A DNA stretch of 64,000 bases from a virus, in the IMG/VR virus record IMGVR_UViG_3300036851_000176, positions 64,001 to 128,000 of that record. One strand, written 5' to 3'. The translations under genes and the position numbers were made by a program. The notes under the pieces are model-generated. The model had not been told where the DNA came from. It searched no databases and worked only from the letters and a program-made list of their open reading frames with translations. Numbering within the stretch: position 1 is the stretch's first letter; each line of letters begins with the position of its first letter. Positions 478 to 42,755 of this stretch are shown here, one piece after another.

Positions 478-1518
478 CTAGGTGGCCCAAGAATTGTACC
501 ACGAATAAGCCCCGTCAAGCCACTCGGCGACCTCCTCGTCGCTCGCGTCAGCGGGGTCGGAATCGCGCTCGGGAACGATCAGAACTGGCATCACTATCTG
601 GATCATCTCAGCCGCGCGCTCTGCCTTTTCTTCCTCGTCGAAAAGCAAGACAACCTCGTCGGCTACGCGCGACAAAATCGCGACCTGAGCCTTGGACATG
701 AACTGTCCAGACATGCCGAGCACTCGCCGGTGACCGTATTGCTTCATCGCCAGCCTGTTCAATTCGCCCTCGCAAAGGATGACTCGACCAGAGGTTCCCG
801 GGATGTCGTGGATTCCATAGAGGGTCTGAGAAGCATCGAACGTGTCGAAGTTGTACCGGTCCTCCTTGCCTGGCTTGTTGCCGAGGAATCGGTACTTCGG
901 CTTCGCCTCGGGCCACCAAGCGCGCCCCTTGAATCCAATCAAGCGACCCTCTTCATCTCGATACGGGATGCTAATCATCCTGAGGATCGGGTCGAACCCG
1001 ATCTCGGCATCTTCGAGAGTCTGCTTCGTGAAACCACGCTGGAACATGTACATCGACCACTTCGGAGGCGCCGTATCGTCCATAAGCATGGCATCCCACA
1101 CAGCCTCCCAGTCCACCGCGCGATCCTCCTGTTCCTTCTCGTCGATTGGAACGATCGCTCTCTTCTCGGCAGTCACGTCCTGGTTGATGATTTTCTCGTA
1201 GTCGGACCAAAGATCGATCGTGTCGATGAAAGACGTTCCGTAGCGCTCTCTGAGTGCGGCCTTCGCAAGGAAGACGTGGATGCCCTGCACCTTCGACCAG
1301 AATTCGATCGCCGTGCCGGAGTTGCCGCAGACGAAACAGTTGAACGTATACCAGCCATGCTTGTCCGCAGGGCGAAAGGAGTTGTTGCGGTTCCCGCTCC
1401 CCGGCTTGTGACCAGGGAACGGGCACTTGAACCAGACTTCGTCGCCTTCCTTCTCGATCTCGGAGATTCCGAGAAAGTCGAGCATATCGACGATGTCGAT
1501 CTTGACGTTGTCTGCCAC
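478..1518 (-). CDS. DNA primase (Zn finger + TOPRIM)
   Basis: CPFPGH...FNCFVCG zinc finger, IGFKGR, ILCEGE..., LLFDE, DPAD motifs. Confidence 0.9.
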   Translation of the reverse strand: MADNVKIDIVDMLDFLGISEIEKEGDEVWFKCPFPGHKPGSGNRNNSFRPADKHGWYTFNCFVCGNSGTAIEFWSKVQGIHVFLAKAALRERYGTSFIDTIDLWSDYEKIINQDVTAEKRAIVPIDEKEQEDRAVDWEAVWDAMLMDDTAPPKWSMYMFQRGFTKQTLEDAEIGFDPILRMISIPYRDEEGRLIGFKGRAWWPEAKPKYRFLGNKPGKEDRYNFDTFDASQTLYGIHDIPGTSGRVILCEGELNRLAMKQYGHRRVLGMSGQFMSKAQVAILSRVADEVVLLFDEEEKAERAAEMIQIVMPVLIVPERDSDPADASDEEVAEWLDGAYSWYNSWAT

Positions 1519-2912
1519 TAGGAGACGATTTCTCCGGTAACTGCATCCACCGTCTCGTCGCCGACCTGAACGAGTTCACCGCGAGCGGCCGTGCCGAGTT
1601 TGTACGCGGCCTTCTTGTTGTCCGGGTCAGGCGCCGCCTCGGCCTCCGCCAGTTTGGTCGCCTCGCGAGTCTTGCGGATTTGCTCCATCATGTAATTGTC
1701 GGCGAACCGCATCTTCTTCATGTCCCAGTAGACCTCGGTGTCGAGAATCTCTCCGTCGCGGTTCTTGAGCAGTTTCACGTCCATGATGTTCTGATCGCGA
1801 TCCTCGTCCTCCTGATGAAGACCGATCACGATGTCGGCGTCCGCTCCGATCGAATACGATCCGCCGATGTTGTCCATCTGGGCGCCCTCTTTAGCCGACG
1901 ATCGATTCGTCTGACTGATCGCCAGGATTGGGGTTCCGGTCCGGAGAGCGATCTGCTTGAGGGATCGAGTCAGTGTTGTGAGATTCGCCCACCGCTGCTC
2001 GTCTGCTCTGTTGCTGCTCTCCATGAGCGTGAGGTAGTCGATCGCACACACGTCGGGCCTGTGCTTGAGGATCTCTCCGTGGACACGCTCCGAGGTCCAC
2101 GAACCTCCGTCCGAGACGACGATGATCTCTCGCTGAGATGCAGCCTCTTTCGCCTCCTTGGCCCATGCTCGCCAGCGCTTGATCTCCTCGTCAGTGAGGT
2201 TCAGCATCTTCAGGTGACGGTACGACGCGAACTGCTGGAACATCTGATCCCACTTGCGCATCAGAGCTTCGGCGGTCATCTCCAGCGAGATGTAGAGACA
2301 CTTCTTGTCCTGAAGGTAGAAGTTGCTGAGGATCCATTGCACGAGCGTTGACTTACCTGTGCCCTGCCAGCCGACGATGGCGACGAGTTCGTGAGGTTGG
2401 ATGCCGAGAGTGGCGTCGTCGATTTCCGGAATGCCCATCTTGATTCCGATGTAGGCATCTCCGGACGCGGCGCGCTCTTCGAACAGAGCAATGCGTCGTT
2501 CCGCATCGCTGAATCGCGACACCTCTCCGGTTGGGAGGATCTGCTTCAGTTCGCGCCCGTACTCCAACATGAGTTCGCTGAGACGACCGGCATAGGCTGG
2601 ATCGTTCGTTGCAGGTCCGAGGACTTCGCGGACGAATTCGATCGTCATGCGGCGCTCGACTGATTCGACGAACCGGTCCCGGATGTAATCGATCGGCTCG
2701 TCGCTCAACTCGAAGTTGAACTTGACGTTCTCCTGAATGGTCTGGATGGTCGGCTGCTTCGAATACTTCTCGGTGTGCGCGACCATGAAGTCCCAGCACT
2801 CGATGCAATCCTCGTGGATCATGAGGTCGGCGGTGAGTCCATCAGCGAGAAGATCGGACAGGCCCTTGCCCATATGCGCGACCTTGGAAACCAATGCTCG
2901 TTCTGCGTCCAC
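1518..2912 (-). CDS. DnaB-like replicative helicase
   Basis: Walker A GWQGTGKS, ISLEM, IDYLTLM, ISQTNR, ADADIVIGL, KNRDG. Confidence 0.93.
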   Translation of the reverse strand: MDAERALVSKVAHMGKGLSDLLADGLTADLMIHEDCIECWDFMVAHTEKYSKQPTIQTIQENVKFNFELSDEPIDYIRDRFVESVERRMTIEFVREVLGPATNDPAYAGRLSELMLEYGRELKQILPTGEVSRFSDAERRIALFEERAASGDAYIGIKMGIPEIDDATLGIQPHELVAIVGWQGTGKSTLVQWILSNFYLQDKKCLYISLEMTAEALMRKWDQMFQQFASYRHLKMLNLTDEEIKRWRAWAKEAKEAASQREIIVVSDGGSWTSERVHGEILKHRPDVCAIDYLTLMESSNRADEQRWANLTTLTRSLKQIALRTGTPILAISQTNRSSAKEGAQMDNIGGSYSIGADADIVIGLHQEDEDRDQNIMDVKLLKNRDGEILDTEVYWDMKKMRFADNYMMEQIRKTREATKLAEAEAAPDPDNKKAAYKLGTAARGELVQVGDETVDAVTGEIVS

Positions 2913-35118: not shown

Positions 35119-36243
35119 GTGGCTGAAACAAGACAGTGCGGTAAGTGTCGAGAAGACAAGCCCGTGACCGACTTCGACGACACGCGAGTGTCCAACGGAG
35201 TCAGTCGCAAGTGTGAGGCTTGCTACGAAGCAGAGGGCAGAGGCCGACGACCGAACGTCGCCGAGCCAAGCGAGATCGAGAAGTCAACTCTCGAAGCCCT
35301 CAAGAAGCTGGGAGATACGGCGTCAATCGAAGAGATCGCCGACTACGCCGACATCGCGCCGAAGCGAGTGCGCGAGGCTCTGGAATCCCTTGGGCATCAA
35401 GGATTCCGTCTGGAGCACGAGGGAGATCACAAGGTTACCCTCCAGAAAGTCCCCCGACCGAGCACCATGGAGCACAAGGTGCTGTTCAAGGGCGAGACCT
35501 ATCGGTTCGCCATCATCTCCGACGTACACCTCAACTCGAAGCACTGCCGACTCGATGAACTCCACATCGCGTATGACATGGTGGCCTCCGAAGGAATCTC
35601 CGACGTGTACAACCCGGGAGACATCGTGGCCGGTCGCGGCATCTTCAAGGGCCAGGACCACGAGATCATCAACCACACGTTCGAGGCACAGAAATCGTTT
35701 GCGATCGAGAACTACCCGGTGCGTGATGGGGTCACGACCTACATCATCTCCGGGAACCACGACTGCGAAGGCGACTTCGGCAAGGCCGGAGCCGATGCCT
35801 GCCTCGGAGTGGCAAACGAGCGCGAGGACCTGATCTGGGGCGGAATGTATGCCGCCGACTATGTTCTCCCGAACGGAGCCGTGATGACGATGCGGCACCC
35901 GATGGGCGGATCGTCCTACGCGAAGTCGTACAAACCTCAGAAGTTCGCTGAATCGTTCGAGGGCGGCACGAAGCCCGCGATCGTCCTCTTCGGCCACTGG
36001 CACAACTTCGAGGTCGGTTTCCACCGCAACGTGTACATGATCAACTGCGGCACCTTCGAGGGATACGGCGGGACCTTGGGTCTCCGCGTTCCTCTCGGAG
36101 CGCCCGCTGTCGGCTTCACGATCGCCGAAGCAACTCTCGGCGATGACGGATCACTCGTCCGCTTCAAGCACGAGTGGTTCCCGTTCTACGCGGGCCGACG
36201 CATGGGCAAAGGAAAGAGCCGTTCCGGCCGCAAGGCTGCGTAG
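35119..36243 (+). CDS. HTH + calcineurin-like metallophosphoesterase
   Basis: SDVH, GDIV, SGNHD, MRHP, GHWH. Confidence 0.88.
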   Translation: MAETRQCGKCREDKPVTDFDDTRVSNGVSRKCEACYEAEGRGRRPNVAEPSEIEKSTLEALKKLGDTASIEEIADYADIAPKRVREALESLGHQGFRLEHEGDHKVTLQKVPRPSTMEHKVLFKGETYRFAIISDVHLNSKHCRLDELHIAYDMVASEGISDVYNPGDIVAGRGIFKGQDHEIINHTFEAQKSFAIENYPVRDGVTTYIISGNHDCEGDFGKAGADACLGVANEREDLIWGGMYAADYVLPNGAVMTMRHPMGGSSYAKSYKPQKFAESFEGGTKPAIVLFGHWHNFEVGFHRNVYMINCGTFEGYGGTLGLRVPLGAPAVGFTIAEATLGDDGSLVRFKHEWFPFYAGRRMGKGKSRSGRKAA

Positions 36244-37262: not shown

Positions 37263-37335
37263 TCAGGCTGAGAGGATTCGAACCTCTACCGCTCGCTCCC
37301 AAAGCGACCGTGCTGCCGTTGAACACTACAGCCTG
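37263..37335 (-). tRNA. tRNA-Pro(TGG)
   Basis: TCGC-TTTGGGA-GCGA, C1-G72. Confidence 0.9.
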
Positions 37336-37408
37336 TTGTGACTGTCTTCGCGGCTCGAACTTCGGTGCTTATGTGATGGTGCTTGAAGAGAGACGCGCAG
37401 ACAGCGAA

Positions 37409-37471
37409 TTAGACCCCTGGAAACCAGGGGGTATTCGGCTGATGCTGTTGCGATGTCATCTCGATCTTCAT
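37409..37471 (-). CDS. putative leader peptide MKIEMTSQQHQPNTPWFPGV of the Pro/Trp/Phe/Gln/His/Asn tRNA operon
   Basis: ATG 10 nt after -10 box; residues match downstream tRNAs. Confidence 0.75.
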   Translation of the reverse strand: MKIEMTSQQHQPNTPWFPGV

Positions 37472-37481
37472 TGCGCCACCA

Positions 37482-37510
37482 ACGTTACATGAATGGTCGT
37501 GGTCTGTCAA
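37482..37510 (-). promoter_or_regulatory. promoter, tRNA operon 4
   Basis: TTGACA-N17-TAACGT. Confidence 0.75.
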
Positions 37511-37868: not shown

Positions 37869-37963
37869 GTGATGCCTCCGCTTAGCGGCCTGCCAGCGAC
37901 CTTACGCACTGGTTCTGTTCCCACGCCAGCGTGCGCCCCGCGCGGCCCCGAAGGGCATTTCAG

Positions 37964-38283
37964 TGGAGCCGCCGGGTATCGAACCCGGGTCCGTCTCGTC
38001 CGTACAAACAGATCTTCTAGCAGCTTCGGGGTGGTATACGCCACCTCCACCAGGGCAGACCTTTGGTCTCCGCGTCACCGTTGAATGGGGTCGGTGTCCC
38101 GTCCTACTGGTACATCATCCCGGACTTCTGTTCCTACCGGCCGGGGCGGCGCTCGTGGCCGTTAAGCCGCGAGAGGAAGCACGTATGCTTCGTCGTTTCG
38201 TTTGCCCTCCGGGCCGGTGCGGTAGGCCGCAACCCGCTGCGATCTCCTTGCCGTTTTCGAGGCGTCGAATCCAATTCGGCCCC
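37964..38283 (-). ncRNA. ssrA: tmRNA
   Basis: 5' GGGGCCGAATTGGATTCGAC, 3' GACCCGGGTTCGATACCCGGCGGCTCCA (G3-U70), tag frame ...NDEAYVLPLAA*. Confidence 0.93.
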
Positions 38284-38290
38284 ACACGGG

Positions 38291-38318
38291 ACTATACACA
38301 TTCCGGGCGTTTTGTCAA
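38291..38318 (-). promoter_or_regulatory. tmRNA promoter
   Basis: TTGACA-N16-TATAGT with TG extension. Confidence 0.75.
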
Positions 38319-39359: not shown

Positions 39360-39446
39360 TACGGGAGGCGGGAGTCGAACCCGCACGTCCTTTCGGACAC
39401 CGATTTCTGAGACCGGCGCGTCTACCGAGATTCCAGCCACTCCCGT
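39360..39446 (-). tRNA. tRNA-Leu(CAG)
   Basis: CCGGT-CTCAGAA-ATCGG. Confidence 0.9.
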
Positions 39447-40929: not shown

Positions 40930-40931
40930 AG

Positions 40932-41003
40932 TGGATCCCCGAGGACTCGAACCCCGATCTCATGGCTTAAAAGGCCAGACTCTGCCTGTTGAGTTAGAGA
41001 TCC
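40932..41003 (-). tRNA. tRNA-Lys(TTT)
   Basis: TGGC-CTTTTAA-GCCA. Confidence 0.88.
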
Positions 41004-41285: not shown

Positions 41286-41334
41286 GCGTGTCATGCAATA
41301 CACGTTTTTCATGTACAACGTGACAGTCTTGCAG

Positions 41335-41407
41335 TGGCGCCCCGAGGACTTGCACCCCGTTCGCGCGGCTTAAGAGGCCGGACTCTGGCTCGTTGAGTTA
41401 GAGCGCC
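41335..41407 (-). tRNA. tRNA-Lys(CTT)
   Basis: CGGC-CTCTTAA-GCCG. Confidence 0.85.
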
Positions 41408-41593: not shown

Positions 41594-41689
41594 CTATGCG
41601 ACGGTAATGCGCGTCGCGGCCAGCACGGTGCGGACGACGGTTCTCGTCGTTCGCTTGAGTTTCCTCTGTGCTGTCCGCGTGAAGTTCAT
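41594..41689 (-). CDS. putative leader peptide MNFTRTAQRKLKRTTRTVVRTVLAATRITVA of the Ile/Val/Lys/Arg/Ala/Thr tRNA operon
   Basis: Leaderless ATG 7 nt after -10; 25 of 31 residues are I/V/K/R/A/T. Confidence 0.8.
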   Translation of the reverse strand: MNFTRTAQRKLKRTTRTVVRTVLAATRITVA

Positions 41690-42394: not shown

Positions 42395-42395
42395 A

Positions 42396-42680
42396 AGTCC
42401 CCTTGCGGGGAGCGCCCAGTCCGCTTGCCCTCTACCGGGGGCCGACCGGGCAATGATTGAGGCACCTGCGGGCCGTGCCTCCCTGCGCCCTCCGGAGAAT
42501 CCATGAGGCTGCGAGCGGTGGAGAGTCGATCGCGCCTGGGATGTCAATTCGGGAGGGTCATGACTCCCTCCCGACCTGGCCGTCGCCAGGATTTCAGTGT
42601 TGCTCCGTCGAGCACCCCTCGGCCCGGACAACCGCCGGGACGGAAACGCGAGAGGCCACTGTCTCCGGGTTTCCCCTTCG
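42396..42680 (-). ncRNA. unassigned multi-stem RNA between tRNA-Met and tRNA-Glu
   Basis: At least six hairpins, e.g. CCTGGC-GACG-GCCAGG, TCGGGAGGG/CCCTCCCGA, GAGGCAC/GTGCCTC, TCCCC-GCAA-GGGGA. Confidence 0.5.
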
Positions 42681-42682
42681 AG

Positions 42683-42755
42683 TAGCGGGTACGGGAGTCG
42701 AACCCGCTGTCTTCGGCTTATGAGGCCGCTGTGGAAGCCGTTTCACTCCCCCGCT
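42683..42755 (-). tRNA. tRNA-Met(CAT)
   Basis: CGGC-CTCATAA-GCCG. Confidence 0.85.

Follow-up and report, generated by a model that had tools for sequence, protein, structure and literature searches.

The tRNA array and the probable control region of its fourth operon

The DNA considered here derives from one IMG/VR virus record of 146,625 bp (IMGVR_UViG_3300036851_000176, estimated 95% complete) that represents an uncultured phage, and the window is the whole 64,000-nt stretch at positions 64,001–128,000 of that record. ARAGORN places 25 tRNA genes in the window, every one of them on the minus strand, and Rfam adds a tRNA-Met(CAT) at 42755–42683 and a tRNA-Leu(CAG) at 39446–39360. Between 36641 and 42789 lie four promoter-defined tRNA units that partition the 20 amino acids with zero overlap into the sets {M,E,D,G}, {I,V,K,R,A,T}, {Y,C,L,S} and {P,W,F,Q,H,N}. 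The last set belongs to a six-tRNA operon (operon D, 37335–36641, minus strand) that opens with tRNA-Pro(UGG) at 37263–37335 and continues with tRNA-Trp(CCA), Phe(GAA), Gln(CUG), His(GUG) and Asn(GUU) between 36641 and 37195. The stretch directly upstream, 37336–37510, is probably the control region of this fourth tRNA operon, a judgement made jointly with the whole leader-sensor explanation set out below.

Read along the minus strand, the region begins with a sigma-70-type promoter whose −35 hexamer (TTGACA, 37505–37510) is separated by 17 nt from a −10 hexamer (TAACGT, 37482–37487), and 10 nt beyond the latter stands the ATG of a leader ORF of 20 codons plus stop (37409–37471, with the ATG at 37471 and the TAA at 37411–37409). 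Codons 8–18 (37418–37450) form the core of putative sensing codons, over the end of which the P-W-F-P-G codons can fold into an apical hairpin, CCCCUGG-UUU-CCAGGGG, of 7 bp and a 3-nt loop (37414–37430). From the stop codon to tRNA-Pro runs a 73-nt spacer (37336–37408; C 24, G 15) that includes a pyrimidine-rich block of 16 nt (37385–37400) and a 30-nt tract with C 12 and G 2. The spacer is neither tRNA-like nor a match to any Rfam family, which rules it out as a decayed tRNA, and a longer TTG-started ORF is not credible because its start would fall inside the −35 hexamer, 37510 being the position of that TTG and not of a start codon.

No Shine-Dalgarno-like sequence precedes the leader ATG in the window or in the three related phages described below (L004, L001 and L008), and the distance from the −10 hexamer to the ATG is 9–10 nt in all four. 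Given that the usual gap between a −10 element and the transcription start is 6–8 nt, we infer a near-leaderless transcript with a 5′ untranslated region of about 3 nt.

Other features of the array deserve mention in their own right. A tmRNA gene (window 37963–38318, minus strand) has its own strong promoter, TTGACA and TATAGT separated by 16 nt at 38318–38291, and a predicted tag that is unusually long (ARAGORN); a tmRNA occupies the corresponding position in L004, and that of L008 is on the opposite strand with a short tag. At 41332–41404 (minus strand) lies a tRNA-Lys(CUU)-like sequence, missed by both ARAGORN and Rfam, that is paralogous to tRNA-Lys(UUU) at 40931–41003 and has an altered T-loop, possibly a tRNA in decay or one of non-canonical type. 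A 146-residue ORF within the tRNA array has no homologue besides itself. Operon A (Met, then Glu, Glu, Asp, Gly, Gly) is without a leader ORF. Its tRNA-Met and tRNA-Glu are separated by about 290 nt (window 42395–42682, minus strand; L004 8628–8826) that match no Rfam family, and a hairpin in this spacer is kept in L004 via compensatory changes with differing reading frames; the spacer may be a structured RNA.

Relatives and conservation of the leader

Relatives of the phage were not found by the usual routes. In cultured phages, DNA searches at close and remote range matched tRNA genes only; with the flanking phosphoesterase as query, neither an exact-word nor a profile scan of IMG/VR gave a match, and a degenerate back-translation of the leader core matched nothing in IMG/VR or in a metagenome collection. 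Because the closest capsid matches are to Arthrobacter phages at no more than 29% identity, the lineage must be treated as uncultured, and an actinobacterial host is no more than putative.

A 374-residue metallophosphoesterase that adjoins the array (35119–36243) has many homologues and served as the anchor gene, and the contigs that carry these homologues gave three independent relatives with tRNA arrays: L004 from a JGI metagenome (80% identity in the anchor gene), L001 from an NCBI assembly (75%; a 146-kb contig, of which L002 and L003 are identical copies) and L008 from a Logan assembly (62%). tRNA scans near the anchor gene in the contigs of eight further relatives found no tRNAs, and a search of the genome collection added a single locus, which has no tRNAs. 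The same six tRNAs as in operon D are present in L004, L001 and L008, in the order Pro-Trp-Gln-Phe-His-Asn in L001 and Pro-Trp-Phe-His-Asn-Gln in L008; the tRNA-Trp of L004 falls below the score threshold, yet aligns with the weak tRNA-Trp of the window itself. L004 also has an extra tRNA-like element that is absent from the window, between tRNA-Trp and tRNA-Phe (2302–2366, minus strand; 43.6 bits, truncated anticodon arm).

The sequence-only reading had tied the leader ORF to the Pro-Trp-Phe-Gln-His-Asn operon and had staked this on the presence of such an ORF in relatives with the same tRNAs. That core reading is strongly supported, since a promoter-proximal ORF stands directly before tRNA-Pro in 3/3 relatives, in each case on the minus strand and with all six amino acids: 19 codons with 10/18 residues in the set in L004 (2665–2724), 21 codons with 15/20 in L001 (12374–12439; p = 7e-8) and 22 codons with 10/21 in L008 (13683–13751). 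Own-set p-values for the six-amino-acid leaders of the four phages range from 7e-8 to 5e-3.

The window and L004 leaders can be aligned. Within the core they differ by four substitutions, each of them synonymous and at a third position, and the comparison also shows one whole-codon in-frame indel of 3 nt and two conservative replacements. Identity is 53/63 nt over the ORF and falls to 6/17 and 4/10, or about 40%, across the promoter spacers, whose two hexamers are retained; the −35 hexamer is the same at 6/6 positions amid scrambled flanking bases, and the pyrimidine-rich block past the stop codon is the same at 16/16. Purifying selection of the coding type on the leader ORF is evident from this comparison of sequences. 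The peptides of L001 and L008 have their residues in another order and cannot be aligned with that of the window, and because they nevertheless carry all six amino acids it is composition that is the conserved property. Common to the leaders are the distance of the start from the −10 hexamer, a size near 20 codons and the set of amino acids encoded, a pattern that fits selection on decoding and not on the peptide product. The phages thus have in common a leader ORF, a promoter geometry and a set-matched composition, conserved while the sequence itself changes.

The tRNA-operon promoters of L008 (13760–13775, 15545–15560 and 16760–16775, minus strand) have GTGTGG directly before the −10 hexamer, as in the extended −10 type, and no clear −35; those of the window, L004 and L001 are unlike them in these features.

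Composition of the leader and its match to the tRNA cargo

As the sequence-only reading had it, 10/11 residues of codons 8–18 fall within {P,W,F,Q,H,N} with no member of the set missing, and the leader uses the Pro codons CCG, CCC and CCA together with both Gln codons. In a six-frame scan of the whole genome (∼293,000 windows of 11 residues), the leader core was the sole window outside polyproline with at least 10/11 residues in the set, and just 0.24–0.40% of stop-free windows of 19–21 residues contain all six amino acids. A strict rule for promoter and ORF (TTGNNN, 16–19 nt, TANNNT, 5–12 nt, ATG and an ORF of 10–60 codons, on both genome strands) gave seven matches genome-wide, of which three head tRNA operons (ATG at 41689, 39666 and 37471) against an expectation of 0.18. 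Each of the window's three leaders matches its own tRNA set only, with p-values on the diagonal of 1e-6, 8e-3 and 1e-3 and off-diagonal values above 0.4.

The same relation holds among siblings. Across ten leaders from four phages, the amino acid of each downstream tRNA is represented, and the leader's own class has the top in-set fraction in 10/10. The operon-B leader of L001 has two tRNA-Gly genes downstream and contains Gly, whereas the window and L004 have their Gly genes upstream of that leader, which is free of Gly; likewise tRNA-Cys lies downstream of the operon-C leaders of the window and L004, which contain Cys, and upstream of the operon-C leader of L008, which does not. Leader composition thus covaries with tRNA cargo, which supports a link between the two. 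The operon-C leader of L008 (15324–15386, minus strand) lacks a promoter of its own and begins just 3 nt beyond the tRNA-Cys 3′ end. Only tRNA processing could place its AUG at a 5′ terminus.

An automated scan picked up the leaders of each of the four phages, and mismatched-set controls gave p < 1e-3 in 0/109 cases. The same scan found no leader in Mycobacterium phage ScoobyDoobyDoo or Streptomyces phage Karimac, and at 80 unrelated IMG/VR tRNA-Pro loci (36 of them with at least six tRNAs) 0/319 candidate mini-ORFs reached p < 1e-3; these cultured-phage and unrelated-locus scans rule out a matched leader as a general property of phage tRNA arrays. One look-alike was rejected. It lies in L155 (IMG/VR 3300036893_000006, 41% GC), an unrelated contig on which a 15-codon ORF (1418–1465, minus strand) draws 7/14 residues from {W,N,F,P}. 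This ORF stops 14 nt short of a tRNA-Trp gene that is followed by those for Asn, Phe and, further on, Pro, and a hairpin pairs its Pro/Thr/Asn codons with the Trp codon and stop; its p = 2e-3 among ∼380 candidates is at chance level, and its relatives are without tRNA arrays.

The matching is at the level of the amino acid and not strictly of the codon. L008 has tRNA-Pro(CGG) but uses CCC and CCA in its leader, the latter partly because its hairpin needs CCA, and the window has tRNA-Gln(CUG) but one CAA. A preference for rare codons can be dismissed as a family feature, as minor codons (TTT, AAT and CAT, 18–40% usage) occur in the window leader, a choice not seen in its relatives. Trp, Phe, His and Asn have one codon each in the window leader, and with most of the putatively sensed amino acids thus represented by a single codon weak sensitivity is to be expected, which counts against a sensor.

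Predicted RNA structure and candidate stop signals

The hairpin that had been proposed over the P-W-F-P codons is borne out, and when compared with dinucleotide shuffles its extended local fold scores z = −3.9. A predicted hairpin at the end of the ORF, over the last sensing codons and the stop, appears in each phage with z = −3.9 in the window, −2.5 in L004, −1.6 in L001 and −5.2 in L008, and in 3/4 of them it pairs the Trp codon UGG with a Pro codon CCA. Its outermost pair is C-G in the window and U-A in L004, a compensatory change. A second, long-range helix is predicted between the pyrimidine-rich block (37385–37400), which supplies its 3′ arm, and the start-codon region (37458–37469) together with 37449–37452; minimum free energy folds agree on it, and the consensus fold of the window and L004 retains it with one U·G to C-G change. 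This helix involves the G of the AUG together with codons 2–5 and is common to the two alignable leaders. Once transcribed it would hide the 5′ AUG, so that under this folding model only a ribosome loading during transcription could read the leader.

The absence of a U-tract after the leader, claimed earlier, also stands: only 1–2 U occur in the 9 nt past the ORF-end hairpin in all four phages, and a scan of the window for terminators found no terminator-like site on this strand. With no U-run after the hairpins, a classical terminator/antiterminator pair is therefore missing. The distance from stop codon to tRNA-Pro is 73 nt in the window, 66 in L004, 10 in L001 and 7 in L008, and over a range of 7–73 nt a single shared output mechanism is hard to draw.

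Two further suggestions of the sequence-only reading survive in part. The C-rich, G-poor tract past the stop codon is real in the window and L004 (30-nt tracts with C 12–15 and G 2, starting 16–18 nt after the stop), but a Rho loading site at that place is not family-wide. In L008 a tract with C 15 and G 4 lies inside the ORF, and that of L001 is weak (C 13, G 7). A post-stop Rho site cannot be the family's common mechanism because tRNA-Pro starts only 10 nt (L001) or 7 nt (L008) after the stop; an output of the Rho type may still apply, since the tract within the L008 ORF is comparable. Mycobacterial Rho is reported to be insensitive to bicyclomycin, which may bear on an actinobacterial host. 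Similarly, the sub-orders P-W-F and Q-H-N of the peptide do match gene order in the window, but order is not colinear in L001 and L008, which differ in both tRNA and peptide order, and the colinearity is probably coincidence.

Permissive searches of the region with Rfam found no match to a T-box or other regulatory-RNA family. Predicted base pairing between leader and tRNA acceptor strand was rejected, being no better than in shuffled leaders.

Comparison with known leader systems

Several enterobacterial operons are preceded by leader-peptide attenuators, among them trpL, hisL and pheL and the multivalent leaders of thr, ilvGMEDA and ilvBN. The phage leader resembles these in being a short ORF upstream on the same transcript (promoter, ATG, ORF and tRNAs in turn, with conservation of the coding type), in its enrichment in codons for several specific amino acids that match the downstream genes, in a hairpin over the sensing codons and stop, and in a start region that would be sequestered after transcription. 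It is unlike them in that its cargo consists of tRNA genes and not biosynthetic enzymes, in being phage-encoded, in its predicted near-leaderless start and in its six amino acids with mostly one codon each; moreover, an intrinsic terminator with an exclusive antiterminator is absent from all four phages, neither a U-tract terminator nor an obvious antiterminator being found. The pheM leader of Escherichia coli, which controls the pheST operon for phenylalanyl-tRNA synthetase, offers another likeness, as a component of the translation apparatus is there controlled via decoding of leader codons for its own amino acid. Unlike the phage leader, pheM regulates a synthetase, through a canonical terminator and one amino acid.

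T-box riboswitches also couple the state of a specific tRNA to the expression of translation-related genes, but they recognize a single tRNA by direct binding, with no translation involved, whereas the in-frame arrangement, fixed start and in-frame indel of the phage leader argue that it would be read by translation and not as a T-box.

Leaderless polycysteine short ORFs in mycobacteria are attenuators (Canestrari et al., bioRxiv 10.1101/834739) in which, much as is proposed here, a leaderless short ORF heads a polycistronic transcript and a stalled ribosome opens an RNA duplex. Those ORFs are host elements that sense one amino acid, unlike the phage leader, which is followed by tRNA-Pro and so by neither an ORF nor a ribosome-binding site. 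Conditional Rho-dependent termination linked to upstream ORFs in mycobacteria is described in two further reports (bioRxiv 10.1101/2022.06.01.494293; PMC12360218), and such systems and those of the tnaC type have a translated upstream ORF beside C-rich, G-poor RNA with no U-tract terminator, an arrangement that the leaders of the window and L004 may resemble; the phage family differs in that the C-rich tract is without conserved position and the downstream genes encode structured RNAs. A long tRNA array borne on a cyanobacterial plasmid and induced by translational stress (PMC8421152) likewise ties a tRNA array to trouble in translation, there on a bacterial plasmid and here in a phage, and neither leader peptides nor attenuators or terminators are mentioned in that paper. 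Full-text searches of one literature library yielded no description of a leader peptide or attenuator ahead of tRNA genes. Ribosome-read leader control is a known kind of regulation; phage tRNA operons would be a new class of cargo for it.

Proposed mechanism and alternatives

There is reason to think that the leader lets ribosomes gauge the supply of the six tRNAs and tune their production, and this is the explanation that we consider most likely. Transcription from the sigma-70-type promoter would yield an RNA that starts a few bases before the AUG, and a ribosome would read the 20-codon leader, the second half of which consists of Pro, Trp, Phe, Gln, His and Asn codons. The dwell time of the ribosome on those codons would report how efficiently they are decoded, and the ribosome would hold open or free the helices that enclose them, namely the ORF-end hairpin and the long helix between the start region and the post-stop block. 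The state of these helices would in turn determine what share of the tRNA transcripts is finished or processed to maturity. A homeostatic sign is favored, such that slow decoding keeps the helices open and more of the six tRNAs are made; against this, a simple one-hairpin model with a closely coupled ribosome gives the opposite sign. The input side, by which decoding would depend on the operon's six amino acids, is well supported by the leader comparisons. That the leader is translated and that it regulates we infer from sequence, and the sign of the regulation and its output step are proposed on the same footing.

If the opposite sign were to hold for the same sensor, the tRNA block would be made only while the leader codons decode well: a coupled ribosome would block the ORF-end hairpin or Rho, and upon a stall the polymerase would run ahead and be stopped. 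Such control of the polarity type is consistent with a hairpin at the extreme end of the ORF and with tRNAs that begin 7–10 nt past the stop in L001 and L008, a distance too short to accommodate a separate terminator/antiterminator pair, and matching at the level of the amino acid and not the codon fits the sensing of amino-acid supply. Nevertheless, it would place the tRNA pool under positive feedback, with no homeostasis, and would leave unexplained why the leader of each operon is matched to its cargo when any translated ORF would serve, and it seems unlikely to us. Another reading is a tna-like, Rho-dependent stop in which the C-rich tract is a Rho loading site that is masked by a ribosome stalled on the last codons, a reading to which we give a small but appreciable weight. 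Structured tRNA transcripts are, as a matter of general knowledge, poor Rho substrates; the tract has no conserved position, is weak in L001 and is in part the very block predicted to pair with the start region, and the sibling operon-C leaders have just 4–9 nt between stop and tRNA. To be set against these difficulties are the C-rich, G-poor tracts past the stop in the window and L004, the similar tract in the ORF of L008 and the lack of U-tract terminators, and the combination of Rho with translated upstream ORFs is reported to be common in M. tuberculosis (bioRxiv 10.1101/2022.06.01.494293).

The output could also be post-transcriptional, if the leader RNA entered into competition with the 5′ strand of the first tRNA's acceptor stem, or shaped the precursor in some other way, with ribosome occupancy controlling processing by RNase P/E or precursor stability and not transcription. 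Two of the phages do place the tRNA 7–10 nt past the stop, and the predicted probability of pairing between acceptor strand and leader is 0.90 in L001, 0.83 in L008 and 0.44 in the window, dropping to 0 when the ORF is held unpaired. Yet shuffled leaders equal this pairing in 8–65% of trials, the value in L004 is 0.02, and such competition would affect tRNA-Pro alone when the leader covers six amino acids, all of which makes it improbable. Finally, the ORF might encode a functional micropeptide or be a chance match unlinked to the tRNAs; nothing specific speaks for this beyond the fact that short ORFs are common in phage genomes. It is hardly compatible with a composition that is kept when sequence and order are not, with a combined chance below 1e-7 for three independent peptides that each contain all six amino acids, or with the lack of matches in unrelated tRNA arrays, and we consider it very improbable.

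A bolder form of the preferred explanation, in which the leader gauges tRNA supply, may be ventured only tentatively. It holds that this phage lineage might have sorted tRNA genes for the 20 amino acids into four non-overlapping operons, three of them with a ribosome-read gauge coded in the amino acids of its own cargo, and that the output might be an undescribed step other than a classical terminator, for example a refolding of the leaderless tRNA precursor, under ribosome control, that settles whether the precursor is finished or matured.

Implications for phage tRNA biology

Phage tRNA genes are usually viewed as fixed cargo that compensates for codon usage or replaces host tRNAs destroyed by defence nucleases (e.g. 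PMC11555353; PMC11464382). If the explanation favored here is true, the phage would gauge demand and adjust its tRNA supply group by group, leader-peptide sensing would extend from amino-acid metabolism to the tRNA pool itself, and the leader of operon D would be a compact natural sensor of six aminoacyl-tRNA pools simultaneously. Were the four-operon reading also to hold, tRNA supply during infection would be driven by demand, possibly countering host defences that deplete tRNAs.
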